Program-made: the position numbers and the translations under genes | NCBI GenBank assembly: GCA_035946435.1 | Contig: DASYZH010000353.1 | Location: forward strand, 2,376-66,375 | Length of the DNA: 64,000 nucleotides | Reading direction: 5' to 3' | Source: Puia sp. | GTDB taxonomy: Bacteria; Bacteroidota; Bacteroidia; Chitinophagales; Chitinophagaceae | Shown here: positions 35,179 through 51,235 of the stretch, in pieces | Layout: every line of letters begins with the position of its first letter | Numbering within the stretch: position 1 is the first letter of the stretch | The notes under the pieces: generated by a model | The model's input: the letters and a program-made list of their open reading frames with translations, nothing else | Told to the model about the DNA's origin: nothing | The model's database searches: none

Positions 35179-36747
35179 ATGCACAGATCACTTCTCGCCG
35201 TACTCCTCTTATCCGGCTCCCGACTCGTAGCACAACCTTATAACCCTTCGATCGACATTCAGCATTATGATTTTTTATTAAATCTCAACGACAGCAATAA
35301 TACCATCCGTGGGGTAGCTACCGTCAACCTTGAATTCACCCAAACCGTTGACCAGTTTGCCCTCGACCTCACCAAAAAAACCGATGACGGCAAAGGCATG
35401 ACCGTCAGCTCCGTCTCCGAGAACGGGGACCAGGTCCCCTTCGTCCAGGACAGCCAAAAGCTCTTTATTCACAGCCGTGGCGCCGCAGGACAGAAACATA
35501 CCTACCTCATCGTCTATAGCGGTATTCCCGCCGACGGCCTCATCATTTCCAACAACAAATTCGGAAAACGCGGCTTCTTCGGCGACAACTGGCCGAACCG
35601 CGCGCACAACTGGCTGCCGTGCGTAGACCACCCCTCCGACAAAGCCACACTCGAATTCCGCATCATCGCCCCCGACCATTATACCGTTGTCGCGAATGGC
35701 GCCCTCGATAAAGAGACGCAGCTTTCAGGCCATCGCAAGATGACGATCTGGAAGGAATCCGAACCGCTCGCGCCCAAGATCATGGTCATTGGCGTCGCGG
35801 ATTTCGCCGTCGACCATCCCGGTGACGCCATGGGCGTGCCCGTTTGGAATTACGTCTACCAGCAAAACAAGGAGGAAGGCTTTAAAAGCTATGCTGTCGC
35901 CTTGCAGATCCTTCCTTTCTATATCTCGCACATCGGCCCCTACCCCTTCGAAAAAGAAGGCAATGTCCAGTCCAAGACCCGCTTCGGCGGCCTCGAGAAT
36001 GCCAGCGCCATCTTCTATTATGAGAATTCGGTAGAGTCCCCCGGCGTCGAATCGCTGATGGCCCACGAGATAGCCCACCAATGGTTCGGCGACGCCGCCA
36101 CGGAAACCGGGTGGAAACACCTTTGGCTCAGCGAAGGCTTCGCCACCTATATGACCCTCTGCTATCTGGAAAACAAATATGGAATCGATACACTCAAAGC
36201 CAGCCTCGTGCAGGACCGTAAAAAGGTGATCCAATTCGAAAAGACCAGGCTCACGCCCGTTGTCGATACATCGATCAGGCAGGATTACATGCAGCTCCTC
36301 AACCCCAACAGCTACGAAAAAGGCGGCTGGGTGCTCCATATGCTACGCCGCCGCATCGGTGATGAATTGTTCTGGAAAGGCATCTCGACCTATTATTCCA
36401 CGTATCGCAACGGCAATGCCTCCACGGACGATTTCAGGAAGATCATGGAACTGGTCAGCAACCAGCGGCTCGACACCTTCTTCCACCAGTGGCTCGAGGA
36501 GCCCGGCCACCCGCATGTGACCATCACCTGGAAATACGACCAGGATAAAAAGGTCGCCGCCATCGACATCACGCACACCGGCGACTTCCAGTTTCCGCTG
36601 GAATACGCCATCGACGGCACATTGTATCACGTCGCCATCAGGGACGCCGAGACCCACGTCGACCTCCCTCTGCCGGAAAAACCCAACACGCTCACCCCCG
36701 ATCCCAACGTCAACCTCCTGGCGGATTTCGAAGTCACGAGCCAGTAG
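35179..36747 (+). CDS. M1 family zinc aminopeptidase
   Basis: Signal peptide, GGLEN, HEIAHQWFG, WLSEGFATY and YEKGGWVLHMLR. Confidence 0.93.
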   Translation: MHRSLLAVLLLSGSRLVAQPYNPSIDIQHYDFLLNLNDSNNTIRGVATVNLEFTQTVDQFALDLTKKTDDGKGMTVSSVSENGDQVPFVQDSQKLFIHSRGAAGQKHTYLIVYSGIPADGLIISNNKFGKRGFFGDNWPNRAHNWLPCVDHPSDKATLEFRIIAPDHYTVVANGALDKETQLSGHRKMTIWKESEPLAPKIMVIGVADFAVDHPGDAMGVPVWNYVYQQNKEEGFKSYAVALQILPFYISHIGPYPFEKEGNVQSKTRFGGLENASAIFYYENSVESPGVESLMAHEIAHQWFGDAATETGWKHLWLSEGFATYMTLCYLENKYGIDTLKASLVQDRKKVIQFEKTRLTPVVDTSIRQDYMQLLNPNSYEKGGWVLHMLRRRIGDELFWKGISTYYSTYRNGNASTDDFRKIMELVSNQRLDTFFHQWLEEPGHPHVTITWKYDQDKKVAAIDITHTGDFQFPLEYAIDGTLYHVAIRDAETHVDLPLPEKPNTLTPDPNVNLLADFEVTSQ

Positions 36748-37804
36748 TGGACAACATATTCAGGCATGCTTTCATATACCCCAATGCATAGGCCATTCCA
36801 GCGTACCAGGGACCTTCGCAATTCATCTGCGGGGTATGATCGGGAATGAGCACACCGTCGAACTGCGATGCCTGCAATATCTTAAGCACAGCGATCATAT
36901 CGATGTCGCCCTCGTCAAGGAATACCTCTTTATAATGGGGGACCTTACCCTTTACATTCCGAAAGTGGACATATGCAATATCCCGGGCAAACTCCCGTGT
37001 TGCGGCATAAATGTCGCCTTCGGTCATTTCGGCGATCGACCCCAAACAGAACTCTAGCGTATTGGCGCGGCTGGGCCGCATGTCGAGCAACCGCCGGTAC
37101 AATTGCGGCTGGTAAACCAGGCGGGGAGTTCGCCGGATAAGCGGCATGGGCGGGTCGTCGGGATGTGCCGCCAGACGAACACCGGCTTCTTCCGCTACAG
37201 GAATCAATTCGTCGAGAAAATACTGTAGCCTGTTCCAAAGCTCACCGGACGAAATTTCAGGAAGATGACCGGTGGGAGCGTTCTCATCATAGATCATATT
37301 CCAGACCATCCCGTTGGGGATCGGCCGGTCGTCTACACCATTCATTCCCACCGATACTGCATTGCCCCGGGCAAAGGGTCCTGTGATGCGGCTGGAGACT
37401 CCCGCCAGGCTGAAATTGTAGCCGATGATCGGGATGCCGGCCTTACCGACGTTGCGGATCATTTCCTTGAGCCCTTCCGCCTGTTGGGCTTTCCGTGGGC
37501 CGTCGAGCAGGATATCGTACCAATGGGCGGGGTCGAAGTTCTCGATGGCTTCCAGTTCCAGGCCCGCATCGTTTATCTCTTTTTTGAGGGCGATGAGCTC
37601 TTGCGCGGTCCATAGGTTTTTTGCATCGCCCGCAATTCCCCAGCCTCCGTCGTCGCCAATGGGCTGGTTATTCCTATTCCCCTGGTTTCCCTTGTTGAAA
37701 TAGTCTACCAGGTGAACGACCAAATGAGTACAGCCGCATTGTTTTGCAAAGTCGAAATGTCTCCGGTCAAGCATGTGCCGGTATAGGCCCAATCCAAGTT
37801 TCAT
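36734..37804 (-). CDS. Mannonate dehydratase (UxuA)-like sugar-acid dehydratase
   Basis: LEAIEN, YNFS, HPDDPP, LEFCLGS, HFRNVKG, FLDEGDIDM and PDHTP. Confidence 0.8.
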   Translation of the reverse strand: MKLGLGLYRHMLDRRHFDFAKQCGCTHLVVHLVDYFNKGNQGNRNNQPIGDDGGWGIAGDAKNLWTAQELIALKKEINDAGLELEAIENFDPAHWYDILLDGPRKAQQAEGLKEMIRNVGKAGIPIIGYNFSLAGVSSRITGPFARGNAVSVGMNGVDDRPIPNGMVWNMIYDENAPTGHLPEISSGELWNRLQYFLDELIPVAEEAGVRLAAHPDDPPMPLIRRTPRLVYQPQLYRRLLDMRPSRANTLEFCLGSIAEMTEGDIYAATREFARDIAYVHFRNVKGKVPHYKEVFLDEGDIDMIAVLKILQASQFDGVLIPDHTPQMNCEGPWYAGMAYALGYMKACLNMLSTTGS

Positions 37805-37834
37805 TTTGAATGATTTATTTGCAAAAGAAGTCGA

Positions 37835-39049
37835 TCACAAAATGCCATATTTCTTGAAGGCAGCCGTGCTGGACATCCCGTTCTCTATTTCTTTCCGGAC
37901 CAGCTTTTCACCTCTTGCTTTTTCAAGGGCGCGAACGGTGACGGCTACTTCATGCTGCCGGGGTACGATAACCACCCCGTCCATATCGCCGAATACGAGG
38001 TCGCCCGGCATGATCGTGACGCCACCGATCTCGATGCGACAGCGATAGTCGACCACTTGCGTCCGAACGCCGGAGTCCTGGGCATAGCGGCCCCTGCTGA
38101 AAACGGGCCAGTTTTGTTCGAGCACCCGGGGAGTATCGCGATAATACCCGTTGATAACGGCGCCGGAGGCGCCGCGGATCCTGGCGGTAGCTGTAAGGAT
38201 CTCTCCCCAATAGGCGCAACGCATTTCCCCACCGGTGGCAATATATATTTCGTTCTTTTCGAGTTGGTCGAGCGCTTCCGTGAGTTTCCCGAACGGCGTT
38301 TGCTGAGGCCCGTATACGTCGATCATCAGGACAGGCATAGCTCTGCCGATAAGTTTGTCCTCGATACGGACCGGCTGGATGGGTTGGGGAAGAAATTGGT
38401 GATAACAACCCAATTCGTCGAGGATGTCACCAACCACCGGGGTATAGAGTTCGGATCTGTATAACGAGAATAACTCCTCATCGTCATTCCATGACGGCCG
38501 CTGAAGGTTTTTGTGTGTTGACGTTTCTATCATTTTTTTGGAATTATCGATTGACTTATAATTTTCAAGGCTGGTCCCGTTGCTTTCGACCGCACGCATT
38601 ATTTTTTGCCGCAGGTCCTCTTTTTCCGCCGGGGATAATTGCCGGAAGACGAAATCTCCCAGGTGGGTGTCATTGCGTTCGACGATGATGACCGAGGCCG
38701 TTTTGTCCATCGCGATATTGTGCCAGGTGCCGGCAGGGATATTATAGGTGATCCCGGGCCTCATCAGGATGCATTCGTAGTCGAGCTTCCCGTTTTCACC
38801 AGGCGCCCCCGATGAGTCGAGCTTCCCGTTTTCACCGGGCGCCCCCGAGGGATGGGCGGCGATGAGCACGGCCGATCCCCGAAGGAGGATAAACACCTCG
38901 TCGGTAAGCCGATGCATATCGATCTTGGCAATCCCCGCCAGGTCCTGTTCATCGAGGTGATTTAGCTGGGCCACCTGCCATCCCGCCCGGATCAAAAAGG
39001 GATCGTATCCGGGGCCGGCATGTTCGTATTTTTCGATTTTTGATTTCAC
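37835..39049 (-). CDS. Cupin domain fused in frame to an RraA/HMG-aldolase family domain
   Basis: Likely GTG start at 39049. Cupin motifs: [22 protein letters not shown]. RraA motifs: [37 protein letters not shown]. There is a possible second ATG at 38533. Confidence 0.75.
38779..38848. repeat. In-frame tandem duplication, 36-bp period ([11 protein letters not shown] x2)
   Basis: AGTCGAGCTTCCCGTTTTCACC(A/G)GGCGCCCCCGA at 38779 and 38815, with one mismatch. Confidence 0.9.
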
Positions 39050-39053
39050 GGGC

Positions 39054-39848
39054 TTATTTTTTTGGTCGGGGATCATATGGGATCGTGGTTTCCTTGTAAC
39101 CGCCATCGACGTACAGCTCCGTGGCGGTGAAATAGGCCGCCTTGTCACTGGCGAGGAAGGCACAGGTCCAGGCGACATCCTCCACCCTGCCGACACGCCC
39201 CATGGGAATCCAGCCATTGAATTTATCGCGCCCAAAAGATTCAATTTCGTGCCGGTTCATCTCGGTCTCGATAGCGCCGGGCGAGACGGCGAGCACACGA
39301 ATATGATGTTCGGCCAGTTCCAGCGCGAGACACTTGGTCATCATATTCAGACCCGCTTTGGCGGAACAGTAGTGGATCAGCCCTTTGCGGGGGATCTTAT
39401 CATGGATGGAGGAGATGTTCAGGATCACGCCGGTGTTTCGCGGGATCATCCTCCTTGCTGCTTCCTGGGCACAAAAGAAGGCTCCCCGCAAATTTACATT
39501 TAAAACCCGGTCCCATGTTTCGGGATCGAGGTCTACCGCGTGTTCGACCGTTTCGCAGCCGGCATTATTAACCAGGATATCGATTGTGCCATGCGTATTG
39601 TCGAAATCGCGGAACATCGCCAGGACCTCCGGCTTATCTGAGATGTCCGCGGCGAAGGCATTTGCTCTGACCCCATAACGCGCGTTTAGCTCTTTGGCGA
39701 GATCAAGGGCGTTTTGCTGATCCTGGTAATGGTTGATCATCAAATTCGCGCCGCAGGCAGCCATGGCGTGAGCGATGCCCGCTCCGATCCCCCGGCTTGC
39801 TCCGGTGATCAGTACGTTCTTATTTTTGAGATCGATGGTATTTTCCAT
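39054..39848 (-). CDS. SDR oxidoreductase, glucose/aldose 1-dehydrogenase-like
   Basis: [27 protein letters not shown] and PGAIET. The HDKIP..HY pattern resembles Bacillus glucose 1-dehydrogenase. Confidence 0.85.
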
Positions 39849-39865
39849 AAACAAGGTGGTGTCGG

Positions 39866-41077
39866 TTATGCTTTCGTTGTGGTTTGATCAAGAAATCCCC
39901 GGACCCGGGCTTCATCCCAGCCGCAGACCTCCCTGAGTATTTCGGCGGTATGTTCACCAAGGAGGGGCGCAGGCCGGCGGACCCCCGCAGGGGTCTTACT
40001 GAACGATACTGGGATGCCGGTCGTCGCAACTTTACCGGCGGTAGGATGATCATAGTTTATGATCATTTCATTATGCAGCACCTGCGGGTCTACGACCATT
40101 TCCCTGAAGCTGTTGACCTGGGAGCACCAGATATCGTGCTGGAGCAGCAGGGCCAGCCATTCATCGGTGGTCCGGGTACGGAATACGGCTGCGAAGTCGG
40201 CGTAAATGGCGTCGCGGTCCTCGATGATATTGTTGCCGGCGTATTTTTCGGCGTCATATTTCGTGATGCCCATGATCCGGGCCAGCGCACGAACCGAATT
40301 CATGCCGATCGCGATGAAGCTGTCCCGGGTGGGATACAGGCCGTAGGGTGCGCCAAGCCATGGATTCGGGATACCGCTGCTGCTTCTCTCGGGGTTCTCG
40401 CCTTTGCAGAGATAGGCGGTGATCTCCTGGGTATGAAAGGCAATGATGGAGTTGAGGAGACAGGCGTCGATGCGCTGTCCCTGCCCCGTTTGTTCCCGGT
40501 AGTAAAGGGCTGCCAGTACGCTCTGCACGATAAACAGACTGGTAAGCAGGTCGGCCTGACCGACCGCAGTGACGACCGGCAGCTCGCCGCGCCGGCCGTT
40601 GAGATAGGCGCCGCCGGCGAGAGACTGCGCCAGCAGATCCTGACCCGGGCGTTTTTGGTAGGGGCCGTCGCTCCCATAGCCGGAACTGGCGCAATAGATG
40701 AGACCGGGATTGGAAAGTTTGAGCGTTTCGTAGCCGATCCCCAACCGATCCATGACCCCGGGCCGAAAATTCTCGATCAGGATATCGCACCGGGAGATGA
40801 TCGCCCGGGCGGCCTCCAGACCTTGTTCGGATTTCATGTCAAGGGCGATACTGCGTTTGTTGCGATTGAAACCCAAAAAGGATATGCTTTCGCCGGCCGG
40901 GTAGAGATTGCCGTAGGCATATTTCCGCATCCAGTCGCCGGCAGGCGGCTCGATCTTGACGATCTCGGCGCCCATATCGCCGAGCATCTGGGTTGCCCAG
41001 GGGCCCTGTACGAGTTGGGTGAAATCGGCTATGCGGACACCAGCCAATGGCCCCTTGTTGTTATTTTCTTTTTGCAT
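39866..41077 (-). CDS. Family III CoA-transferase (CaiB/BaiF)
   Basis: LAGVRIADFTQLVQGP, NRNKRSIALD, ENFRPGVMDRLG, GQDLLAQ and APLLGEHT. Confidence 0.93.
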   Translation of the reverse strand: MQKENNNKGPLAGVRIADFTQLVQGPWATQMLGDMGAEIVKIEPPAGDWMRKYAYGNLYPAGESISFLGFNRNKRSIALDMKSEQGLEAARAIISRCDILIENFRPGVMDRLGIGYETLKLSNPGLIYCASSGYGSDGPYQKRPGQDLLAQSLAGGAYLNGRRGELPVVTAVGQADLLTSLFIVQSVLAALYYREQTGQGQRIDACLLNSIIAFHTQEITAYLCKGENPERSSSGIPNPWLGAPYGLYPTRDSFIAIGMNSVRALARIMGITKYDAEKYAGNNIIEDRDAIYADFAAVFRTRTTDEWLALLLQHDIWCSQVNSFREMVVDPQVLHNEMIINYDHPTAGKVATTGIPVSFSKTPAGVRRPAPLLGEHTAEILREVCGWDEARVRGFLDQTTTKA

Positions 41078-41078
41078 A

Positions 41079-42245
41079 TTATTTGCCGTTTAATGTGCGG
41101 GGAAAGTTAGACAATACCTGATTGCCCTCCCCGGTTACCAAAATATTGTCTTCTATCCGCAGACCGCCCATTCGATCGATGTAGACACCGGGCTCGACTG
41201 TGACAACCATGCCCTCCCTGAATACGCCCTCGGAATACGGCGACAACACTTCTCCGGGATCATGATAGCGGAAGCCAACGTGATGTCCAAGCGCATGGTT
41301 GAACTTATCGCCGAATCCCGCATCGCGGATGATGTTGCGTGCCGCGGCGTCAACCTGCCGCATCGCCATGCCCGGGCGTATCAAATGGATGGCCGCCGTC
41401 TGTGCCCGGCTCACCGTATCGTACAAAGATTGTTGTTCAGGGCTGGGTTCACAAGGCAGCGCCGTGCGGGTAATATCGGCCCAATAGCCGTTTACACAAA
41501 CACCCATTTCAAGGAGAACGAAGCCTTCGCTTCGGATGACCTTCCCGGTACTCCTGTTGAACCTGCCGGCGTCGGCGGTATTGAGGCCGGACTGCACCAT
41601 CGGCCATGCTTTTGCAAAGCCGATTCCGTCTCGGTCAATCGTTTCCTGGACGGCCAGTTCGATGAGGCCGGCGAGCCGGGCCTCGGAATGTCCCTTAACT
41701 ACCTCCGCATAGAATTCCCTAATGGCTATTCCCGCCACCTCGTGCGCCAAATGTAAGCCGGCAACATCGGTTGGACTCTTATATTCGTAGAGCCGGAGCA
41801 AATCGGAAGTGATGTCCCGGAAGCCGCCTGCAAGACTGGCGAACTGTTGGACGAGATCGGCCGGCAGTGGTGGCTGCTCCCCGGACATCCGGCAGGGGGC
41901 GCTGCCGCCGATGGATGGAATATAGGAGCAGGGCAGTCGGGTAAGATCCTTCAGCCGCAATACATCAGCCATAAGTTTATAAAGGCAGGGCCAGGGATCT
42001 TCGCCATTGTGCACGCCCCACGGGAATCGCCGGATCTCGATATGCTGCGGCAGACAATCATCGGGCTCCAACTCCGGCACAAAGAGTACCGGTTCACCAT
42101 CTGCCGTATAGAGCAGTACGGACAGGCCCCAGAGCGGCATATAGCCGAGCATCATCACCAATTCATCGGGACGCCAGAAGACCAGGGCTGAAAGCTGGTG
42201 GCGGCGCAGGAGCCGATCGGTTATCTCTTTTCTGTATCGATCCAT
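41079..42245 (-). CDS. M24 (Xaa-Pro peptidase / pita-bread fold) family enzyme
   Basis: ADITRT, HALGHHVG, VTVEPGVY and GGLRIEDN. The first metal ligand appears to be Glu (LLEMG). Confidence 0.85.
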   Translation of the reverse strand: MDRYRKEITDRLLRRHQLSALVFWRPDELVMMLGYMPLWGLSVLLYTADGEPVLFVPELEPDDCLPQHIEIRRFPWGVHNGEDPWPCLYKLMADVLRLKDLTRLPCSYIPSIGGSAPCRMSGEQPPLPADLVQQFASLAGGFRDITSDLLRLYEYKSPTDVAGLHLAHEVAGIAIREFYAEVVKGHSEARLAGLIELAVQETIDRDGIGFAKAWPMVQSGLNTADAGRFNRSTGKVIRSEGFVLLEMGVCVNGYWADITRTALPCEPSPEQQSLYDTVSRAQTAAIHLIRPGMAMRQVDAAARNIIRDAGFGDKFNHALGHHVGFRYHDPGEVLSPYSEGVFREGMVVTVEPGVYIDRMGGLRIEDNILVTGEGNQVLSNFPRTLNGK

Positions 42246-42248
42246 GAG

Positions 42249-43019
42249 CTACTTTGAATTCTTTTCTGTGAATTTCTTTATGAGATCCTGAGCTACCGGG
42301 TGGTTGAACAGTTCGATCACGGCTTCTCCTTCCTGATCCAGCCGGGTCTCGAAGGGCAGGCCGATCGCCGCCGGAGTGAGCATGGCCTTGATCGCCTTTG
42401 TTGAAATGCGCGGTCTGCGTTGAAGCTTTTGCGCAAGCGCGAGAACGGTGGCCGGAAGGTCTTCGCCGGCCGGAGTATCGTATACGATCCCCCAATGATG
42501 CAGTTGGGCAGCCGGGTACGAACCTCCAAGCAGGAGCATCTCTTTTGTCCGGTTGACTCCTACCTTTTGCAGCAGCCGTTGAGCACCGCCGCCGCCGGGG
42601 ATGAGTCCGAGATGGATCTCCGGCAGGCCCATGGAAGCCGAGACAGCGGCAACGATAAAGTCACAGGCAAGCGCGATCTCGAAACCGCCGCCCAGGGCAT
42701 ATCCGTTGACAGCGGCGATAAAGGGAATTTCCGCCGTTTCGATAAGCGAGTAGAGCTGACGTCCCTGGCGCTGGAACCGGACGAACTGGTCGTTAGTCTG
42801 TGCGGCATATTCTTTGATATCGGCGCCCGCCATAAAAGCGCGACCCTTGCCGGTGATAACGGCCACGTCGATGTGTTTGTCCTGTATGATGGCCTGAAGC
42901 GCGGCGATGATCTCGTCCATCATGCGGCGGTTCATGGCATTGAGCTGGTCCGGTCTGTTAAAGGTCAGGGTTGCGATGCCGGCTGTGACGGTATATTCGA
43001 TGGTCTCAAATGATTGCAT
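42249..43019 (-). CDS. Enoyl-CoA hydratase/isomerase family protein
   Basis: LTFNRPDQLNAM, AFMAGADI, GYALGGGFE and LPEIHLGLIPGGGG. Confidence 0.93.
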   Translation of the reverse strand: MQSFETIEYTVTAGIATLTFNRPDQLNAMNRRMMDEIIAALQAIIQDKHIDVAVITGKGRAFMAGADIKEYAAQTNDQFVRFQRQGRQLYSLIETAEIPFIAAVNGYALGGGFEIALACDFIVAAVSASMGLPEIHLGLIPGGGGAQRLLQKVGVNRTKEMLLLGGSYPAAQLHHWGIVYDTPAGEDLPATVLALAQKLQRRPRISTKAIKAMLTPAAIGLPFETRLDQEGEAVIELFNHPVAQDLIKKFTEKNSK

Positions 43020-44157
43020 GGCAGAGCGTTTGATAAAGGTTGTTCAATTGCTTCAGAACGGACTTTCCATCCCTGTTTTTTAACACTGCATCATGGATGT
43101 GGTCGGCGCCCTGTTCCTGGAAGCGATTGAAGCCAGGCACTCCCGAACGGCGATAGGCGTGTCGCAGGGTATCCAGTGTACCGGCAAAAAAACGGCCGCA
43201 ATCCTCGTTACAGGCCGGGTCGAGCCAGGTGGTGAGATGAGCAGGCTGGCCGCCATTTTCGTAGTAGACGGTTCGCTGGATCCCCGGGTCCAGAACGTAG
43301 CGGATGAAATCAAAACAAGCATCCCTGTGCCTCGACTTGCTGGAAACGGCAATCCCTGCGCCGCCTAAGAGGGTCGATACCTCTCCTGGGCCAAAGCGGG
43401 GTGCATCGATGAAGGTGAGGCGGTGATGGGGAAATTTCTTACGGGAGTAATTCGTATAGCCAAAACTAAAAGGACAGTAGACGATATTTTCTTCAAGCGC
43501 CATTTTATCGAGGAGCTGGATGGGATTGAGGCGTAAGGAATCAGGGTGTAAGAAGGACTGCCACTGTTTCAATAGCTCCAGGGCCCAGCTGCCGGCGGCG
43601 GAGTCGATACCTTCCGCTGTAAAGAAGTTACCGACTGTAAACTGTGCACAGAGCGTCAGGAAAACGCACCAGATATCAGTAGGGCAAAGCGGAATGGCCA
43701 TTTTGTATTGCCGTGGCAACAAACCGGCTGCCTCCCGGAGATGAACGGTCGAAAGCGGCGGATGCCAGCCCAGGGCATCCGTAATATCGCGGCGGCATAC
43801 GGCCACCTGGGCGGCGGCATCGACCGGCAGGGCATAATGTTTGCCACGCCAGCTGTAGCTTTCATAGGACGGACCTACGCTTTGTTTTTGCTGCGAAGCA
43901 AGGAAGCCGGCCCCGAGAAAGTCGTTCAAGGGCAGGAGGTAGCCATTGGCGCCGGCCTCTCCCATATAGGGGTGATCGATGATCAGCAGATCGTAACGGT
44001 CGATGAGTTTCTCGACGGGGAGATCGCCGAATTCTTTGAGGGTACGGACATCCCATTCGAGGCGATGGCCGGTGCGTTTCTCCCAGCAAGCGGCGGCCGC
44101 TCTCAGGGGTTGATAGCCTCTTGGATGGTCCCAGGTAATACCTTTTAAAAGGGTCAT
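43006..44157 (-). CDS. Family 1 solute-binding-protein-like protein lacking a signal peptide
   Basis: The start was moved to ATG 44157 (MTLLKGITWDHPRG). Motifs: DLLIIDHP, ALPVDAAAQV, LGGAGIAVS and GGQPA. There is no hydrophobic N-terminus. Confidence 0.75.
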   Translation of the reverse strand: MTLLKGITWDHPRGYQPLRAAAACWEKRTGHRLEWDVRTLKEFGDLPVEKLIDRYDLLIIDHPYMGEAGANGYLLPLNDFLGAGFLASQQKQSVGPSYESYSWRGKHYALPVDAAAQVAVCRRDITDALGWHPPLSTVHLREAAGLLPRQYKMAIPLCPTDIWCVFLTLCAQFTVGNFFTAEGIDSAAGSWALELLKQWQSFLHPDSLRLNPIQLLDKMALEENIVYCPFSFGYTNYSRKKFPHHRLTFIDAPRFGPGEVSTLLGGAGIAVSSKSRHRDACFDFIRYVLDPGIQRTVYYENGGQPAHLTTWLDPACNEDCGRFFAGTLDTLRHAYRRSGVPGFNRFQEQGADHIHDAVLKNRDGKSVLKQLNNLYQTLCHAII

Positions 44158-44168
44158 ACTATTTTTTG

Positions 44169-45593
44169 TCAGTTTAATTTTGCTTTCCATTCCCGTTCGA
44201 TCTCCTCCAGGGATTGGCCTTTTGTTTCGGGTACCGTGCGTAGAACGAAGATCATGGCGGGGATCATGGTCAATCCATACAGGATAAAAGTGAACCCGAT
44301 GCCCAGGGACTCCCGAAGCAGCGGATACGTTTGAGTTACGAATGTCGAACCGACAAACAGCGATAGCGTGCCGATGGACATGGCGCGGCCCCTGATCCGC
44401 GTCGGAAAGATCTCGGCGATGACGACCCATACACCGGGGCCGATACTGGCCGCGAATACGGCGATATAGAAAATGAAGCATCCCATAAGAAGTCGTTGGT
44501 TTCCGTCAATGAAGAACAGCACCCCGATTGCGAGCAGGGCGATGGAAAGGCCGGCAAATCCACCGACGAGCAGTCTTTTCCTACCCCAGTGGTCGATCTT
44601 CCAAATTGCGACGAATGTAAAGATCATGTTGAAGAACCCGATGACGGCTGCGCTTTCCATCGCGGATCCGGAGGCAAACCCTGCTTTTTCGAAGATAGCC
44701 GGCGCATAGTACATGACGGTGGTGATGCCGGTAAGCTGGCTGAGGAAGGGCAGGATGATCCCGATCGCCAAGGCCGTCCGAATCCCCGGAGCCAGGAGTT
44801 GCCGGAAGCTTCCCTTCTTGTCGTCTGCGAGCGCCGCGACGATCGTGTTCAATTCGTTCCGGGCTTGCTCCGATCCATTGATCCTCAAAAGGATCTCGCC
44901 TGCTTTCGAGCTTCTACCCTCTTTTATCAGCCAGCGCGGGCTTTCGGGTACGCCCAGCAGGAGCAGGAGGAAGAGGATCGCAGGGATCATATTGGAGCCC
45001 AGCATGCCGCGCCAGGGTTCGGCAACGAAGTAGGGCCATAATATTCCGCCACCGGCGGCATGATGGAGGGCATCCAAGGCATGGCTGGAGGCATCCTGGG
45101 CATGGCTGGAGGCGTAATGCAACAACCCGGCATTCGAAAGATAGCTGCAGAGGATACCCAGGGTGATCGCCAATTGATAAAGCGAAACCAGCCTTCCCCG
45201 TAGCCTGGCCGGCGCCAGCTCGGAAATAAACAGCGGGGCCACCATCGCCGCGAATCCTACCCCAATGCCGCCCACTATACGGGCCAGCACCAACCATGCC
45301 GGGTTCAAGGCCAGCATACAGCCCGCCGCGGAAAGGATAAAGAGAAGGGCGGAAGAGACGAGCATTTTTTTTCGCCCATACTTGTCCGCGAGATAGCCGG
45401 CAATCGCGGCGCCGGCGACACAACCGACGAGCGCCGAGCTCATGATCCATCCCTCCATCGCCGGGCTCAGCCGGAATTGGTCTTTGAGGAAGCCTACCGC
45501 GCCCGAGATAACAGCCGTGTCGAAACCGAACAAAAAGCCACCCATGCCCGCTGTCGCACAGATCGCCGTCAAATAGGTATTCCCCTTGATCAT
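44169..45593 (-). CDS. MFS sugar porter (XylE/GalP-like)
   Basis: GGFLFGFDTAVISG, DKYGRK, ISELAPARLRG, PESPRWL and VPETKGQSLEEIE. Confidence 0.95.
   Translation of the reverse strand: MIKGNTYLTAICATAGMGGFLFGFDTAVISGAVGFLKDQFRLSPAMEGWIMSSALVGCVAGAAIAGYLADKYGRKKMLVSSALLFILSAAGCMLALNPAWLVLARIVGGIGVGFAAMVAPLFISELAPARLRGRLVSLYQLAITLGILCSYLSNAGLLHYASSHAQDASSHALDALHHAAGGGILWPYFVAEPWRGMLGSNMIPAILFLLLLLGVPESPRWLIKEGRSSKAGEILLRINGSEQARNELNTIVAALADDKKGSFRQLLAPGIRTALAIGIILPFLSQLTGITTVMYYAPAIFEKAGFASGSAMESAAVIGFFNMIFTFVAIWKIDHWGRKRLLVGGFAGLSIALLAIGVLFFIDGNQRLLMGCFIFYIAVFAASIGPGVWVVIAEIFPTRIRGRAMSIGTLSLFVGSTFVTQTYPLLRESLGIGFTFILYGLTMIPAMIFVLRTVPETKGQSLEEIEREWKAKLN
45070..45111. repeat. In-frame 21-bp tandem duplication in a His-rich loop of the MFS porter
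   Basis: GCATCC(AA/TG)GGCATGGCTGGAG x2, encoding ASSHAQDASSHALD. Confidence 0.85.
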
Positions 45594-48502
45594 TCTTTTT
45601 GTTTGAGGTTATTTTTTAAGGATAGGGATAGGGTTTGGATAGCAGCGGGTCCCATCGGCAAGCGGATAAGACCTGCGCCAGGTTCGCTGGGACCTAATGG
45701 CTGTTCGATAAGGTCGAGTTTTTGCCATTTTTCGACCGGCAGGAAGGTCCGCAGCGTATCTTTTGCCGGACGCCGTTCCATGTTGACGACGCGCAAGACG
45801 AGATGGTCTCCCTTATCGGCTTTTTTGATGGCGGTGATCAGCGTACCCGGTGCGGCCGACCGGAAGAAGCTTTGACGTTCTGGCAGTTCCGGCGCGGCAT
45901 TTGGCCCCCCGACGGTTGGTTCCGGCGCGGCATTCGTCTTCTTCGCGACGCAGTACAGTTCATGATTGTTGCCGATCCCGAAGGCCATCGCCGGTCCGAG
46001 TCCCGGCAGATGGCTGCTTATGGAAAGGCGGAAGACATGCCTGCCGCGTTGCAGATACCAGGGCCCTTCCCCATGGCAGCTTTTCTGGGTCGTAAGCAGA
46101 ACGGCCTGCAGCACCGGATAGCTAACCGATTCGCGGGTAGGGTCGATCCAATCGAAAACAGCCAGTCTCGACGAAAGCGTGAAGCCGAAATTACGAGTGT
46201 CGGCGGTGACGAAGTTCTGCGACTCCCGCGGATGGATCTCTTCGGGCTTTTGGTAATAGGTGCCGCCCCAGGCCCAGCCTCCGGGTCGTACCTGCAATTC
46301 GGTTTCGTGAACCCCGGCAATGCCCATAGGAACATCATAACGGAGATGCGCATCCGCTGTGTTCAAGGGCAGGGCGAAGCTCAGCTGCCGGCTCCTGATG
46401 CCCTTCCAGTCCGGCAGCTCGATCTCGAAGTCGATCTTCTTCAACCTGCGGTAGACGACAATCCGCTGGATCACCGAATCCTGCCCGAGCAGATACCGGC
46501 ATTCAAAGGTGGTGAATACGGGGCCATCGCTGATCCGCGACCATCTGGAGGCGTGATTGCTGAGCTTGTCAAAATCCCGCATATTGGCGGGTGTTATTTC
46601 GGTGAATTCGCCCGCATCGAGGCCATCGTAACCCAGGTCCAGCACGTCACCACCGGCAAACCGGGTGGTATTGAGGAGGTCCTGGCGAAGTTGTTTATCA
46701 TATAGCTCCGTGATCCCGCCGTCGCCGAAGCGGATGCGATAATATTCATTCTCATAGGCATTTTCCGGCGCCGTGGGCTGGGAAGCGGGTGAGGCTGTTC
46801 CCTTTGAAAGGTAGTAGGTAGAGTACCCAATGGCCGGCACCTTTTCCGCGATGATCGCGAGGCCGTGTCCCTGCTCATTGTTTACAACCTGTGAAGGAAT
46901 AGTCCGACCCTGAGCATCCCGGACGAGAAAGTCCGCCGGGTCACCATCGAGGGGGAGGACCGCCGGTGCGTCGCGGTCCCACGAGAGGTCATTAAAGACG
47001 AGGACAGGATGCTCGTGGCGGGTATCTACCCGGGCCGCGATGTGCTTAAGTGCCGGGAAAAGCGTTGCCCTGGCAATGCTATCGCCGGCTTCGAGGTAAC
47101 TCCGGTAAATGCTGTCTGTTATGTCGCCGTGTTTGCCCCCCCATCCATGATCGGGATAGATGCTTTTGTACCATGCGGTGTCGAATGCAGATTGCGGATA
47201 GTCGTTGAAATTTCCCGCGAGCAGCCCGTCGATGGTGTTGAACATCTCCGATGCGGGAAGATGCACGGCGGCGGCGCGTTTGGCTGCAATGGCTTCATAG
47301 TGCGCGGGACCATGGATATAGAGCCAAAGGTTCGGCCTTTCACCTGCGACGGAGTCGAATCGCGCGCCGGGGACGTCGACACTATCCAGGAACTGGTCGG
47401 CCGTCGTATACCGGAGATGTGGGATCGCTAAACCGGATTCGTCCACCAACCTGTTCCACTCGGCCAGTACCTGTTTGTAGAATACCGGTCCCGAGGCGTC
47501 ATTGCTGATCACCACGGCATAGTGCGGTGGAATATCGCGGGAGGCATAATAGGTGTTCCAGCTCCGGAGCACCTCGTGCAGCTTGTGCATAGCCGTGGGA
47601 GCATCAATATTGAAATATTTATAGAACATCACCGCCCAGCCATAATTTCCCGGGCTATAGGTGAGGACATTTGAACCATCCGGGCTATACCATCGGCAGA
47701 ATCCCTCCTTGAAACGGCTGATGAAGAGATGACGGACACCTGCACGGGCTAGGATCTGGGGAAACTGCAGCGTCCGCCCGGGGACATCCACGCTAAAGGC
47801 GGTACGAGCGTCGATCCGGCCGTTAAACCTATCGAGAAGCCATTTCCTTCCCAGGTACAGTTCCCGAACCAGCTGTTCGTCGGATTCAAGGCCTTCGTAT
47901 GGTTGGTTGAAAGTGGCGCCCCACCCGAATTGACCCGATGCGGAAACTTTTATGGCCTCTTTTTCATAGGCAGGATACTCGTGGAGGAGTTCCATGAGGT
48001 TCAGGGTCTGTTCCATTCCGAATCTGAATTCCGGTGATTCCTGCATCATATCGATGGCCGGGACGATGATCTTGTCGATCCGCTCCATGCGGCAGGAATC
48101 CGGCGTATTCATCCAGGCGATATCCTGGTGCGAGGAGGAGATGATATCGATGGTCCCCTTGCCGAAATAATTCCAATCGTCAGGAATATAAGGTGTGAAT
48201 TCCTGCTCTTTGATGATGTGGCCCTGTTTTTTGAAGGTAAGGGTCTGAGTCTTGCCGAAAAGCGGCACCCGGGTATGTAAGGAATCGCCTTCGACGACGA
48301 AGTGCAGCGGCTTACCGGCCAGTTCAATGCCAAGCCCGCCCGTGGGCCCATCGTATACCAGGGTAACCTCTGCCTGTAACTTTCCGTCTATCTTCGCGTA
48401 ACGCATCGGCTGGGGATAGACCAGGGTAACCTCTTGCGCGGAGGTCCGGACAGCAGCGAGCAAAAGAACGATAAGGAATGAAAAAACTTTTACCATATGC
48501 AT
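45590..48502 (-). CDS. GH38-like glycoside hydrolase (paralogue 1, extra N-terminal domain)
   Basis: Signal peptide, SSHQDIAW, SVDVPG, WLYIHGP, YPDHGWGG, VFNDLSW and a GH38-type C-terminal sandwich (IKKAD...VLRV). Confidence 0.8.
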   Translation of the reverse strand: MHMVKVFSFLIVLLLAAVRTSAQEVTLVYPQPMRYAKIDGKLQAEVTLVYDGPTGGLGIELAGKPLHFVVEGDSLHTRVPLFGKTQTLTFKKQGHIIKEQEFTPYIPDDWNYFGKGTIDIISSSHQDIAWMNTPDSCRMERIDKIIVPAIDMMQESPEFRFGMEQTLNLMELLHEYPAYEKEAIKVSASGQFGWGATFNQPYEGLESDEQLVRELYLGRKWLLDRFNGRIDARTAFSVDVPGRTLQFPQILARAGVRHLFISRFKEGFCRWYSPDGSNVLTYSPGNYGWAVMFYKYFNIDAPTAMHKLHEVLRSWNTYYASRDIPPHYAVVISNDASGPVFYKQVLAEWNRLVDESGLAIPHLRYTTADQFLDSVDVPGARFDSVAGERPNLWLYIHGPAHYEAIAAKRAAAVHLPASEMFNTIDGLLAGNFNDYPQSAFDTAWYKSIYPDHGWGGKHGDITDSIYRSYLEAGDSIARATLFPALKHIAARVDTRHEHPVLVFNDLSWDRDAPAVLPLDGDPADFLVRDAQGRTIPSQVVNNEQGHGLAIIAEKVPAIGYSTYYLSKGTASPASQPTAPENAYENEYYRIRFGDGGITELYDKQLRQDLLNTTRFAGGDVLDLGYDGLDAGEFTEITPANMRDFDKLSNHASRWSRISDGPVFTTFECRYLLGQDSVIQRIVVYRRLKKIDFEIELPDWKGIRSRQLSFALPLNTADAHLRYDVPMGIAGVHETELQVRPGGWAWGGTYYQKPEEIHPRESQNFVTADTRNFGFTLSSRLAVFDWIDPTRESVSYPVLQAVLLTTQKSCHGEGPWYLQRGRHVFRLSISSHLPGLGPAMAFGIGNNHELYCVAKKTNAAPEPTVGGPNAAPELPERQSFFRSAAPGTLITAIKKADKGDHLVLRVVNMERRPAKDTLRTFLPVEKWQKLDLIEQPLGPSEPGAGLIRLPMGPAAIQTLSLSLKNNLKQKE
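45887..45934. repeat. 15-bp direct repeat, 33-bp period (NAAPE...NAAPE)
   Basis: TTCCGGCGCGGCATT at 45887 and 45920. Confidence 0.8.
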
Positions 48503-48511
48503 CTGCCTGGC

Positions 48512-51214
48512 TTATTGCCAGAATATTTTTATCGTTTCAATACTATTGTGTCCAAGCCGGATCGTTAATTGACGGCCGTTGGGGTTCAGGGGTTTCGGGT
48601 GATCTTCGACGAGGGAAGTGTAATAGGCTGTCTTAATGGCCCTGGAAAAGGTAAAGGTAACCTGTACATCTTTTCCCTCCGACTCGTAGAAACGCAGCAC
48701 CGTGCCATTGTCATCCTCTGCCTTCTTAATGGTGGTGATCACTACGTTTTGTTTGTCGCAGGAGACGAAGGCGTTGTTCCCGGGAAGTGCGGGACCGATG
48801 GCCCGCTGGGGATTGACGATGGCGATCGGTGGATCGTTGGCCTGACGGCCGAAGGCCGCGCCCGCTTCCCAGCCCTGGGCGTGGGTAGTCAGCGAAAAAT
48901 GATACGTGTGGTCACCCGTCTGGAGATATTCATTGCCTTCGGAATGGCAGCTACGGCGCGAGGCCAGCAGGATGGGCTGTAGCAGGGTGGCCCTGGGTTC
49001 CAAACCAGTAACATCCATAAAATCGAAAGCGGCCGTCGAACTGCTCAGTGTCACGCCAAAACCATCGCCGGACGCACTCATCCAATTCTGCATGCCCCGG
49101 GGGTGGATCTCCCGGGGCAGGGTCATATAGATCTGACCAGCGGGCTGCGGCAGTTCGTCCTTGCCGATCTCCACCTTCCCAAAAGGAACCTCATACGTTA
49201 CACGGGCGTGAGGAGCAGCTACGGGAAGCGCGAGCCGGAATTCCCGGTAAAGGGTGCCGTCCCAGTTCATGAGCGAAACATCGAAATCGATCCGCCGGAT
49301 CGTATTGAAAACCTTGATATCTTCTTCGACAACTGCGTGGCGAATGGCCTGACGGCAATGCCAAAGCGTATATACCGGTCCCTGTTCTTTTATGGTCCAG
49401 CGGTTATCGTGGCTGCCCAGCCGGTCGAAGTCTTCCAGGGTGGGTTGCTGTACAGCATCGAACTCGCCGGCTCCGGTGCCTACGCTCTGCAACGTAAAGA
49501 CTTCGCCCGCCGCCAGGGGACCGTCGGCGACTATTTGTTTTCCGGTGCTTTTGTCGATGAGGCTGGTGATGCCGCCGGGTCCGAAACGCAGTTTATAAAA
49601 GCGATTCTCATACATGCTGTCACTGGCCAGTGGCAAAGCCGAATGCTGTTCTTCGCCTGGTTTCAGGTACCAGGTAGCATACCCCATCGATGGTAGGTCG
49701 GCCGCGACAAAGCTCAGGCTGCGCCGGGCGGGGCCGGTTCCCGGGGATATCCATGCGCACTGAGATAGAACAAGCTGCCCGGCGTCGTCGTATACCTTCA
49801 CCGCCCCGTGACCCCAGGAGGCCGGAAGATCAACGGACACCGCATCGGTCCGGCGACAGTTGGCGCTGTTGAAGACCACTACCGGCATCCCTTTGGCAGG
49901 GGAAGTAGCGATATGCGAAGCGAGTCGCTGTAATGCCGTTGTAAGCAAGTAGCGCCCCGCGGTCTTTGCCTGGGCGTATTTGGCCAAAAAGATATCGTCG
50001 GTGGACTGACCTTCTTTTCCGCCCCAGCCATGGTCGGGGTAGATCTTGGCCTCCCAGGCTTCGTCCAGGGCGGTCGTGGGGTATTCGCAAGCAGGATCGA
50101 CGACCCGGTTGAGCGACCACCATTTTTCCGCATCGGGCAGCAGGACATCCGCTTCGCGGCTTGCGGACACCGCCCAGTGGTGGGAAGGGCCATGGATATA
50201 GATCCAGACGTTGGGGCGTTCCCCGCTGATCGTCGGGATATGAGAAGACGAGGACTTTATGGCGCCGATGAATTGATCAAAGGTGGCATGCTGAAACCGG
50301 GGCAGCCGGACCGATATTGTTTCGCCCGCCGTGTTGCGCACCCGCCTGATGGCATTCCACCGGCTGATAAAAGGGTAAAGATTGTGCACCGGTTTTTGAT
50401 CCCAACCGAACTCATAATTGAGCACGGCGGGGATCGCTTTGGGCAACCCTTGCCGGTCGTTGAAATGGAGCAGCCAGTAAACGGCTTGTTCGGCCATGGT
50501 CCGGATGGCGGCGGTATCGGTTTTTGCGAGGATATTGTAAAAGTCGATATAATGGCCGGGTGAATAGCTGGTCACATAGGAGCCGTCCGGGCTCGTCCAA
50601 TTGTATAATCCCATGCCGAAACGACTGAAGAACATCCCTGTCACACCGGCCTTGGCCATGAGCTGGGGCATCTGCAGGCTTCGACCGGGCACATCGGAAT
50701 TGTAGTAGATGGTGCTGTTATAGCCGAGGTTATCGCGTAACCATTTCTTTCCGAAATAGAACTGCCTGGCGAGGGATTCGCCGCTATACAGGTCTTCATA
50801 GACCTGGGTATAGGAAGCGCCCGCCAGCATCCTGCCGGACCGGAGGTAGGCGGCCACTGTATCCTTCATCTCCGGGTGACGCCGGAGATATTCCATGACG
50901 ATCGAGGATTGTTCGATGTCCATCCGGAAATCCGCAGACCGCCGTAGCCGGGCGAGGAAAGGCGTCAGCCAAAGCGTATCGCGGGCGATCGTGGATTTTT
51001 CAATGGAGTTGATCCATCCGAGGTCCTCGTGGGTAGTCACCGTGAGATAGATACTGGCATCGCCGCCGGAAAGGGCGTCTACTTTTTTCAACAGCGCAAA
51101 GGTGGCATCGTTCACCGTTAGTACACTTTCTTCGGGTGATTGTGCATAAAGGGAAGACCCGCCGGTAAGCGCAATCGTAAATAGCCAAAGGACAACAATC
51201 GATAGTTTTTTCAT
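48512..51214 (-). CDS. GH38-like glycoside hydrolase (paralogue 2)
   Basis: Signal peptide, TTHEDLGW, GESLARQFYFG, NSDVPG, WIYIHGP, YPDHGWGG, VFNS and IKKAED...LRFYE. Confidence 0.82.
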   Translation of the reverse strand: MKKLSIVVLWLFTIALTGGSSLYAQSPEESVLTVNDATFALLKKVDALSGGDASIYLTVTTHEDLGWINSIEKSTIARDTLWLTPFLARLRRSADFRMDIEQSSIVMEYLRRHPEMKDTVAAYLRSGRMLAGASYTQVYEDLYSGESLARQFYFGKKWLRDNLGYNSTIYYNSDVPGRSLQMPQLMAKAGVTGMFFSRFGMGLYNWTSPDGSYVTSYSPGHYIDFYNILAKTDTAAIRTMAEQAVYWLLHFNDRQGLPKAIPAVLNYEFGWDQKPVHNLYPFISRWNAIRRVRNTAGETISVRLPRFQHATFDQFIGAIKSSSSHIPTISGERPNVWIYIHGPSHHWAVSASREADVLLPDAEKWWSLNRVVDPACEYPTTALDEAWEAKIYPDHGWGGKEGQSTDDIFLAKYAQAKTAGRYLLTTALQRLASHIATSPAKGMPVVVFNSANCRRTDAVSVDLPASWGHGAVKVYDDAGQLVLSQCAWISPGTGPARRSLSFVAADLPSMGYATWYLKPGEEQHSALPLASDSMYENRFYKLRFGPGGITSLIDKSTGKQIVADGPLAAGEVFTLQSVGTGAGEFDAVQQPTLEDFDRLGSHDNRWTIKEQGPVYTLWHCRQAIRHAVVEEDIKVFNTIRRIDFDVSLMNWDGTLYREFRLALPVAAPHARVTYEVPFGKVEIGKDELPQPAGQIYMTLPREIHPRGMQNWMSASGDGFGVTLSSSTAAFDFMDVTGLEPRATLLQPILLASRRSCHSEGNEYLQTGDHTYHFSLTTHAQGWEAGAAFGRQANDPPIAIVNPQRAIGPALPGNNAFVSCDKQNVVITTIKKAEDDNGTVLRFYESEGKDVQVTFTFSRAIKTAYYTSLVEDHPKPLNPNGRQLTIRLGHNSIETIKIFWQ

Positions 51215-51235
51215 CCGCCGCTTATTCGTTTATCA

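Follow-up and report, generated by a model that had tools for sequence, protein, structure and literature searches.

Bacterial mannose, whether derived from fungal and yeast mannans or from N-glycans, is assumed to enter metabolism through a kinase and mannose-6-phosphate isomerase, and an oxidative mannose route has so far been proposed for one archaeon only. In Thermoplasma acidophilum, the proposed oxidative, non-phosphorylative route for D-mannose runs through the dehydrogenase AldT (Ta0754), the dehydratase ManD (Ta0753) and an aldolase (Ta1157) for KDG (2-keto-3-deoxygluconate), enzymes which were tested in vitro (PMC6901390). Two further described enzymes bear on the system reported here: FlDet of Flavobacterium sp. 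UMI-01, a member of the RraA family, turns 2-keto-3-deoxy-glucarate into alpha-ketoglutaric semialdehyde (PMC8563752), and YhcH/NanQ is a metalloprotein anomerase which supplies open-chain N-acetylneuraminate (Neu5Ac) to Neu5Ac aldolase (PMC8141875). Here we describe, in a 64,000-nucleotide stretch of a Puia sp. genome (the window; contig DASYZH010000353.1), four conserved enzymes at the end of an alpha-mannan operon that, judging from their sequences, probably oxidize mannose to a sugar acid instead of phosphorylating it: a short-chain dehydrogenase/reductase (SDR) of the glucose 1-dehydrogenase (GDH) type, a cupin fused to an RraA-like domain in a single open reading frame (ORF), and a UxuA-like dehydratase. 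Their three genes adjoin on the minus strand (36734-39848), an arrangement reported by a first-pass annotation of this DNA and borne out by the ORF listing and by Pfam and NCBIfam scans:

39054..39848 (upstream TTG at 39854), minus strand: GDH-type SDR (adh_short_C2, E 1.4e-61; NF005559, 224.7 bits)
38540..39049 (alternative ATG start at 39076), minus strand: cupin domain of the fused ORF (cupin fold from structure prediction)
37835..38533, minus strand: RraA-like domain of the fused ORF (PF03737, E 1.7e-31)
36734..37804, minus strand: UxuA-family dehydratase, the last gene of the operon (PF03786, E 7e-52)

The loci compared were those of Flavitalea and Pedobacter schmidteae plus 80 from contigs representing one genome per species, classified by tblastn and all-against-all clustering. 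Relatives of the RraA subfamily were found in 352 species genomes, and 352 of the 356 matches of the pattern search encoded such a relative. The order SDR, cupin (137-148 aa), RraA and UxuA-like is fixed in 24 Bacteroidota loci from many genera of the Chitinophagaceae and Sphingobacteriaceae (type A), a recurrence that excludes chance adjacency. Within type A, the SDR is present in all 24 loci and the UxuA-like gene in 22, both exceptions being cut contigs, and a sugar porter and an M24 protein accompany them in 18 and 17 loci, respectively. GH38 glycoside hydrolases were found in at least ten of the 24 (two further divergent GH38 were detected by Pfam), GH76-like proteins in five, and a GH92 upstream of the module in one Pedobacter locus. 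Because GH38, GH76 and GH92 are alpha-mannan families, mannose is the likeliest sugar, and the mannan context assumed in the first-pass annotation agrees with these flanking enzymes.

The other clusters differ in composition. In Sphingomonas and Martelella (type B) the order is an acid-sugar transporter of the major facilitator superfamily (MFS), RraA, a UxaA-like protein, a KduD-like SDR and UxaC, in clusters which also hold an enolase-type dehydratase, GntR, GH28 and a TonB receptor. Type C, from the Verrucomicrobiota and Planctomycetota, consists of RraA, one or two enolase-type dehydratases, a UxaA-like protein and an SDR, and type D of RraA, (GH88), an SDR, a UxuA-like protein and an acid-sugar MFS transporter. 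In 55 of the loci the sequence extends 5 kb or more to either side; 49 of these have a sugar-acid dehydratase, and 52 an SDR, within about 8 kb. Known UxuA and UxaA enzymes both yield KDG, and since RraA and a dehydratase are the sole constant across the clusters, the RraA-like protein most likely acts on the 2-keto-3-deoxy product of the dehydratase. One type-D locus, from a metagenome-assembled genome (MAG) of the Verrucomicrobia (L072:10682-14882), encodes RraA, a GH88 unsaturated glucuronyl hydrolase, an SDR, a UxuA-like protein and DUF6807, a gene content that ties RraA there to the breakdown of unsaturated uronates of the glycosaminoglycan or ulvan type.

The SDR carries the motifs of a Gdh-type aldose 1-dehydrogenase and not those of the FabG or KduD type, in line with its first assignment as an aldose dehydrogenase, and we propose it to be an NAD(P)+-dependent D-mannose 1-dehydrogenase. 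It passes the "glucose 1-dehydrogenase" subfamily model NF005559 (cut-off 215 bits) and falls below the stricter models PRK08936 (205.8 vs. 420) and Lra1 (193 vs. 400), and its best match in the PDB is glucose 1-dehydrogenase IV of Bacillus megaterium (E 3.6e-48). The loops NNAGxE, SSxHxxIP...HY and PGAxxT are common to the SDR and GDH IV, whereas FabG, the next match, has none of them; aligned, the first and last loops read NNAGcE and PGAieT in the SDR and NNAGvE and PGAmnT in GDH, the middle loop of the latter being SSvHemiPwplfvHY. The 24 type-A SDRs carry these motifs without variation, the SDRs of the other cluster types lack them, and by motifs and NCBIfam the SDRs beside RraA in other phyla have loops like those of KduD or gluconate 5-dehydrogenase. 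The GDH loops are the strongest sequence evidence for a module that would start with the C1 oxidation of a neutral aldose.

The UxuA-like protein matches PF03786 with 176.7 bits (gathering score 23.7) and aligns with the mannonate dehydratase of Streptococcus suis (3BAN, E 9e-36). Across 27 orthologues the motifs HPDDPP, CLG, HFRNV and PDH are invariant; HPDDPP, CxGS, HxRN and PDH are what we take, from UxuA structures, to be the metal ligands and catalytic motifs of the family. We propose that the protein is an aldonate dehydratase giving a 2-keto-3-deoxy acid, and D-mannonate is our best guess for its substrate from the GH38 context. A second UxuA-family protein, 32% identical to that of the window, is encoded beside a SusC/SusD pair on contig C57 of the same genome (5058-6137) and carries a twin-arginine-like signal, MDNNRRSFIRKGACLAAGTAMG; export would set it apart from its dehydratase family, whose members are normally cytoplasmic.

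The RraA-like region makes up the C-terminal 230 aa of the fused ORF, which runs from 37835 to 39049 (GTG start) or 39076 (ATG start), and scores 110 bits against PF03737 (cut-off 24.5). A protein search with the fused ORF returned stand-alone RraA-like proteins of 230 aa at 70-85% identity, and identity is 71-84% across the Bacteroidota, Pseudomonadota, Verrucomicrobiota, Planctomycetota and Bacillota (including Sphingomonas, Martelella and Paenibacillus). The subfamily evidently evolves very slowly, and its tree tracks both taxon and cluster type. R130-D131 and E109, invariant in 12 diverse members, match R123-D124 and D102 of HMG/CHA aldolase (HMG, 4-hydroxy-4-methyl-2-oxoglutarate; CHA, 4-carboxy-4-hydroxy-2-oxoadipate) and align with "vRDt" and "fgDll" of 3NOJ, and the predicted fold matches 5IR2, 3K4I and 3NOJ in Foldseek with probability 1.0. 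The retention of the catalytic Arg-Asp pair and of the acidic residue, to which the water on the Mg2+ is bound, agrees with the suggestion, already made in the first-pass annotation, that the protein could be a class II pyruvate aldolase. With scores outside the equivalogs TIGR02798 (LigK; 60.6 vs. 304.5), NF006731 (65 vs. 179) and NF006875 (RraA; 40.3 vs. 136), it represents, by sequence, a distinct subfamily of the RraA/HMG-CHA aldolase family. No known KDG aldolase family (DHDPS/NAL class I or HpcH class II) is encoded in the operon, where an RraA-fold protein stands in that position, and aldol cleavage between C3 and C4 to pyruvate and an aldehyde, the simplest chemistry for such a Mg2+/Arg-Asp site, is our best guess for its reaction.

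Two observations concern the annotation of this domain. The closest solved relative, 5IR2 (30% identity), is titled "novel cellulase from gut microbes" despite its RraA/HMG-aldolase fold, a doubtful label that may mislead the annotation of the subfamily. The domain also matches positions 301-475 of the 501-position "fumarylacetoacetate hydrolase family" model NF009399 (PRK12764), and therefore fusion proteins of fumarylacetoacetate hydrolase (FAH) and RraA exist; as FAH enzymes are hydrolases and dehydratases of keto-deoxy sugar-acid routes, this match again ties RraA to the keto-deoxy step.

The N-terminal ~150 aa of the fused ORF fold as a cupin. In most relatives this is a separate gene of the length given above, directly upstream of RraA, and the cupin-RraA gene of the first-pass annotation is correct for the window and not for the module at large. 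The cupin gene of the relatives stops (TAG) about 20 nt 5' of the RraA ATG; in the junction alignment the window has lost this stop and the frames are joined, with the ancestral RraA ATG (MIETSTH...) kept in frame at 38531-38533, and the fusion is by this comparison lineage-specific. The protein search with the fused ORF found only two other fused cupin-RraA proteins, and because the linkers of the three are unrelated, the fusions arose independently, at least three times. This recurrence argues for a cupin that works at the RraA step rather than as a lactonase, the role first offered for either the cupin or the M24 protein, and the cupin may hand an open-chain substrate to RraA.

The AlphaFold2 (AF2) model of the Flavitalea cupin orthologue (pLDDT 87.3, pTM 0.83) is an all-beta barrel, for which Foldseek returned 3D0J (CA_C3497, an uncharacterized protein; E 2.6e-10), followed by ureidoglycolate lyases, sugar 3,4-ketoisomerases and lyxose isomerase; the model of the fused protein (pLDDT 77, pTM 0.55) is too weak for inference of a cupin-RraA interface. 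Invariant residues include H46, T49-D50-E51, W93-H94-N95 and T112-H113. The second cupin motif reads YNIPxxxWHNIA (PxGxxHxxxN-like), Pfam Cupin_2 matches with an E of only 0.14, and the family has no Pfam model, its close homologues all being labeled "hypothetical". Membership in the KdgF, YhcH, KduI or lyxose isomerase families was considered and finds no sequence support, these being remote fold neighbors at most. One further feature lies within the cupin region:

38779..38848, minus strand: 36-nt tandem duplication in the cupin loop (Tandem Repeats Finder, 1.9 copies, 97% match)

This recent duplication lengthens the loop by 12 residues and occurs in none of the relatives.

The three genes form the 3' end of a tightly packed operon of 13 minus-strand genes (58550 down to 36734; gaps and overlaps of at most 30 nt) in the order SusC, SusD, three GH38, sugar porter, a protein of the solute-binding protein (SBP) fold, crotonase, M24, CoA-transferase, SDR, cupin-RraA and UxuA-like. 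The genes that the first-pass annotation treated as a free-standing locus were correctly recognized, within a frame that was too narrow: the CoA-transferase, crotonase and SBP-like genes of the same operon had been overlooked. The remaining features of the locus are as follows:

58760..59638, plus strand: AraC-family regulator, divergent from the operon (PF12833 HTH_18, E 7e-21)
55425..58550, minus strand: SusC-like TonB-dependent transporter, the first gene of the operon (Plug, TonB beta-barrel and CarboxypepD_reg domains)
53923..55413, minus strand: SusD-like lipoprotein (PF07980, PF14322)
45590..53926, minus strand: three GH38 paralogues, at 51236-53926, 48512-51214 and 45590-48502 (Glyco_hydro_38N, 38C and 38C2)
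44169..45593, minus strand: MFS transporter of the sugar-porter family, XylE/GlcP-like (PF00083, E 9e-111; TIGR00879, 353 bits vs. cut-off 238)
43006..44157, minus strand: cytoplasmic SBP-fold protein, accessory (weak SBP_bac_1 and SBP_bac_8 matches; no signal peptide)
42249..43019, minus strand: crotonase/enoyl-CoA hydratase family protein, accessory (PF00378, E 2e-58)
41079..42245, minus strand: cytoplasmic M24-fold metallohydrolase, accessory (PF00557, E 1e-48)
39866..41077, minus strand: family III (CaiB-type) CoA-transferase, accessory (PF02515, E 2e-112)

With an adjoining SusC/SusD pair, three GH38 genes and a divergent AraC regulator, for which a homologue occupies the equivalent position in eight related loci, the operon is a polysaccharide utilization locus (PUL). 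Each GH38 paralogue has a signal-like N-terminus, their mutual identity being 33-37%, and the sugar porter is the probable importer of the released monosaccharide. Pfam and NCBIfam scans of the operon detected no PfkB kinase, no aldolase for KDPG (2-keto-3-deoxy-6-phosphogluconate) and no known lactonase, in accordance with the first-pass annotation. The genes 3' of the UxuA-like gene vary among relatives, and a molybdopterin oxidoreductase encoded there (32851-35166) was accordingly dropped as a candidate glyceraldehyde oxidoreductase of the pathway. Elsewhere in the window, positions 12001-20000 show a GC skew of -0.24 to -0.34 and an AT skew of +0.17 to +0.2, far stronger than in the rest; this is the region of a giant gene of 1915 aa and neighboring minus-strand genes.

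The CoA-transferase, crotonase and SBP-like genes occur together in seven of the 24 type-A loci, from the Flavitalea/Puia group, Agriterribacter, Ginsengibacter and others, and we would guess at an acid derived from glycerate or glyceraldehyde as their substrate. On another contig of the same genome (C343:7786-13135), the gene of a cytoplasmic SBP-like paralogue precedes those of two family III CoA-transferases, of an amidohydrolase resembling fuconolactonase and of a RhaT-type symporter, with a SusC adjoining. The pairing of SBP-like protein and CoA-transferase in this second sugar-lactone context suggests CoA esters of sugar-derived acids.

The oxidation of an aldose at C1 would give a lactone. 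Scans of the window operon found no SGL, PF10282 or amidohydrolase_2 gene. Two relatives, Paraflavisolibacter caeni (L016) and a Parafilimonas MAG (L020), place a seven-bladed-propeller lactonase of PF10282 (E 4e-76 and 9e-74) about 10 nt 3' of the UxuA-like gene, right after the dehydratase and in just the position to be expected of a lactone step, and a lactone intermediate is thereby implied. The M24 gene is absent from both of these loci, and these two cases of mutual exclusion make a lactonase function of the M24 protein possible, the part of the earlier lactonase suggestion that survives. In the M24 protein a Glu takes the place of the Asp expected as the first metal ligand, and the 18 aligned orthologues all retain the remaining four. 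With four ligands retained and a conserved Glu as the fifth, we rejected the idea of a dead enzyme, and these residues make an active hydrolase probable. The mannonolactone of the Thermoplasma cascade opens spontaneously, and the 1,4-lactone is likewise accepted by ManD (PMC6901390).

The oxidative logic put forward in the first-pass annotation is supported by these two lactonases and by a second locus of the same genome. The latter (C72:34544-47870) encodes three paralogous secreted proteins of ~720 aa (no NCBIfam match), an enolase-superfamily dehydratase, an SMP-30 lactonase (E 2e-65), two SDRs, a cytoplasmic SBP-like paralogue, a FucP/GluP-like MFS transporter and an RraA paralogue 71% identical to that of the window. 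Its gene content is that of a classic oxidative sugar cluster in which RraA takes the position of the last step.

A full route through aldol cleavage by RraA has, in our estimate, a little less than an even chance of being correct. Going by family membership, fragments of mannan would enter through SusC/D, and the secreted GH38 enzymes, three in number, would release a mannose-type sugar, which the MFS sugar porter would move to the cytoplasm. The SDR would oxidize it at C1 to the lactone, as suggested by the motifs it has in common with the structurally characterized glucose 1-dehydrogenase, and the lactone would open spontaneously or through the M24 hydrolase, the PF10282 lactonase serving instead in some relatives. 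The UxuA-like protein would carry out the proposed D-mannonate dehydratase step, to judge from its family and its conserved metal motifs. The RraA-like domain would bind the alpha-keto acid via Mg2+, Arg and Asp in the manner of HMG/CHA aldolase and most likely cleave it between C3 and C4 into pyruvate and D-glyceraldehyde. The cupin probably makes the substrate ready for RraA, perhaps through the opening or isomerization of a cyclic hemiketal, in the way that YhcH/NanQ serves Neu5Ac aldolase. Part of the KDG flux may go to the KdgK and Eda encoded at other sites of the genome, in which case the route would be branched.

Several points weigh against this route. The UxuA-like protein, although it keeps the metal and catalytic motifs expected from its first assignment, lies below both NCBIfam mannonate dehydratase cut-offs (NF003027, 152.6 vs. 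191; TIGR00695, 111.9 vs. 199.6), and therefore the aldonate need not be mannonate. Activity on a keto-deoxy sugar acid has been proven for a single member of the RraA family, FlDet, and this dehydratase/decarboxylase did not use KDG (PMC8563752). Sequence and Foldseek searches found no characterized relative of the cupin. A gene for glyceraldehyde disposal is absent from the operon, and the CoA-transferase, crotonase and SBP-like genes have no explained place in the proposed steps. Finally, an RraA aldolase would be redundant where kdgK and eda are present, as they are in the own genome and in two of the compared loci (L044 and L070).

This last point bears on a semi-phosphorylative alternative, in our view unlikely and yet a serious contender, in which the SDR and the UxuA-like protein make KDG, KdgK and Eda from elsewhere consume it, and cupin-RraA would be auxiliary, in ring opening, tautomerization, C4 epimerization by reversible aldol chemistry or oxaloacetate decarboxylation. 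The own genome does encode an Eda and a KdgK-like PfkB kinase: the gene of the former adjoins those of UxaB and UxaA on contig C21, and that of the latter lies at the edge of contig C6, where it neighbors a non-phosphorylative gene set of the fucose type. Ginsengibacter hankyongi (L044) has, directly after its type-A module, 3' of the UxuA-like gene and on the same strand, a kdgK-type gene (11831-12856), which scores 547 bits against the kinase half of NF041633, and then eda (12947-13612); a Phycisphaerales MAG (L070) has eda and kdgK a short way upstream of RraA. Neighbors of this kind go far beyond what chance would give, and they support KDG or 2-keto-3-deoxygalactonate (KDGal) as an intermediate, and as kdgK and eda coexist with RraA in these loci, RraA is no plain substitute for KdgK/Eda. 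However, kinase and Eda are absent within 7-10 kb in 79 of the 81 loci, RraA holds the slot beside the dehydratase where classical uronate clusters have kdgK/kdgA, and we know of no RraA-fold anomerase or epimerase. The kinase-free character claimed in the first-pass annotation is thus supported in part: the operon has neither gene, and the genome has both, as do the two loci with kdgK and eda beside the module; its description of the chemistry as unusual for Bacteroidetes was overstated, given the fucose-type set on C6.

Clearly less probable is that the sugar is an aldose other than D-mannose, such as a 6-deoxy or otherwise modified hexose which cannot be phosphorylated at C6, with the UxuA-like protein an aldonate dehydratase of new specificity; with such a sugar it would be clear why a lyase independent of kinases is needed. 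The sub-threshold scores of the dehydratase would fit this, as would a Glu in the SDR at the position of the GDH Asn in the PGAxNT loop, the GH95-like, GH89 or esterase genes that flank some type-A loci in place of GH38, and the fact that hexokinase and ManA could process ordinary mannose. Against these stand the predominance of GH38, GH76-like and GH92 genes as neighbors, the full retention of the UxuA active-site motifs, and the kdgK and eda genes beside the module in G. hankyongi, which imply a 6-hydroxy keto-deoxy-hexonate.

We regard as very unlikely a reaction like that of FlDet, in which RraA would dehydrate and possibly decarboxylate a keto-deoxy acid to a keto-semialdehyde (Weimberg type) without cleavage. 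The activity of FlDet on 2-keto-3-deoxy-glucarate gives this a precedent within the RraA family, and the type B and C clusters hold galactarate-dehydratase-like and talarate/galactarate-dehydratase-like genes as well as acid-sugar transporters. Nevertheless, FlDet does not accept KDG, and it is only 25% identical to the RraA-like protein (over 201 residues), compared with 63-80% among FlDet orthologues, on which ground we rejected it as an orthologue. The type-A loci and the C72 locus start from neutral sugars with one oxidation and so would produce no dicarboxylate, and no aldehyde dehydrogenase was seen among the annotated conserved neighbors.

Extremely improbable is a uronate-type scheme, with the cupin as the isomerase of an imported uronate, the SDR as the reductase that makes an aldonate from the keto-uronate, and the UxuA-like protein as the dehydratase of this aldonate: the gene logic parallels that of type B (UxaC-SDR-UxaA-like-RraA in Sphingomonas) and the remote structural neighbors of the cupin include sugar keto-isomerases and lyxose isomerase, but type-A SDRs carry GDH motifs where those of types B to D are of the KduD/Gno type, the transporter is a sugar porter and not of the acid-sugar ACS family, lactonases occur in two type-A loci, and the GH38 context yields neutral mannose.

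Returning to aldol cleavage by RraA, a more general and more tentative proposal can be made, whose chance of holding in full lies well below even. The RraA subfamily would be an unrecognized metal-dependent lyase of 2-keto-3-deoxy-aldonates (KDG type) that ends kinase-independent sugar and sugar-acid routes through UxuA, UxaA or enolase-type dehydratases. In the Bacteroidota it would form a two-part machine with a new cupin family delivering the open-chain substrate, an arrangement that would account for the repeated fusion of cupin and RraA, and, together with a GDH-type mannose dehydrogenase, would constitute the first bacterial oxidative mannose pathway, wired to alpha-mannan PULs. A PUL-linked oxidative module in soil Chitinophagaceae and Sphingobacteriaceae, if true, would alter models of mannan carbon flux. 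Confirmation of RraA as a lyase would assign a function to a widespread family now labeled "RraA family protein", "RNase E regulator" or "menaquinone methyltransferase", and a role for the unannotated cupin family could follow. Enzymes for a phosphate-free and cofactor-balanced conversion of mannose to pyruvate at moderate temperature would also be of practical interest for the cell-free conversion of mannan-rich waste. Our literature search found no paper characterizing this RraA subfamily or module, the GapMind paper being silent on both.

Among known systems, the bacterial non-phosphorylative routes for L-fucose and L-rhamnose proceed through an SDR, a lactonase and an enolase-type dehydratase, followed by an aldolase or by a 4-dehydrogenase and an FAH hydrolase. 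The module resembles them in its proposed sequence of dehydrogenase, lactone, aldonate dehydratase and pyruvate release, and the own genome encodes both a fucose-type set (C6) and the RraA-containing variant (C72). It differs in that the dehydratase is of the UxuA family and not of the enolase superfamily, RraA replaces the HpcH or DHDPS aldolase or the FAH hydrolase, and the sugar is a product of GH38.

The cupin compares with YhcH/NanQ and with KdgF, a small cupin that linearizes unsaturated uronates; Neu5Ac, too, is a 2-keto-3-deoxy acid. In each case a small metal-binding beta-barrel is encoded beside an enzyme needing an open-chain 2-keto-3-deoxy sugar acid, the role of the cupin being suggested by its neighborhood and fusion. 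Unlike these proteins, to which it has no detectable sequence relationship, the cupin has no Pfam match, and 3D0J is the sole close structure.

The RraA-like domain shares with HMG/CHA aldolase (LigK/GalC/ProA; 3NOJ) the RraA fold (Foldseek TM 0.71 to the target) and the Arg-Asp pair and acidic residue at the Mg2+/pyruvate site. It differs in its identity of ~23%, in its score far below the LigK equivalog, and in a context of sugar-acid rather than aromatic catabolism, with a polyhydroxy keto-deoxy acid as the presumed substrate. FlDet is likewise an RraA-family protein of ~230 aa from the Bacteroidota; its substrate is a 2-keto-3-deoxy sugar acid, and Mg2+ stimulates its activity (PMC8563752). 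Apart from the low identity, the FlDet pathway needs an alpha-ketoglutaric semialdehyde dehydrogenase, for which no gene is present here.

Of the known systems, the AldT-ManD-KDGA mannose route of Thermoplasma acidophilum comes nearest. In both, an SDR, an aldohexose 1-dehydrogenase in Thermoplasma and putatively one here, adjoins a dehydratase of the UxuA family (a xylose-isomerase-like TIM barrel), for mannonate in Thermoplasma and putatively so here, the first two enzyme families being the same, and in the Thermoplasma route no lactonase is needed and KDG is converted to pyruvate and glyceraldehyde without a kinase. The Puia system, in contrast, is bacterial and lies within a SusC/D-GH38 polysaccharide locus, its putative lyase has the RraA fold (metal-dependent, class II type) where that of Thermoplasma is a class I KDG aldolase of the DHDPS/NAL family, and it adds a conserved cupin, sometimes fused to RraA, as well as the M24, CoA-transferase, crotonase and SBP-like accessories. 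What is new with respect to Thermoplasma is the fold of the third enzyme, the cupin and the PUL context.

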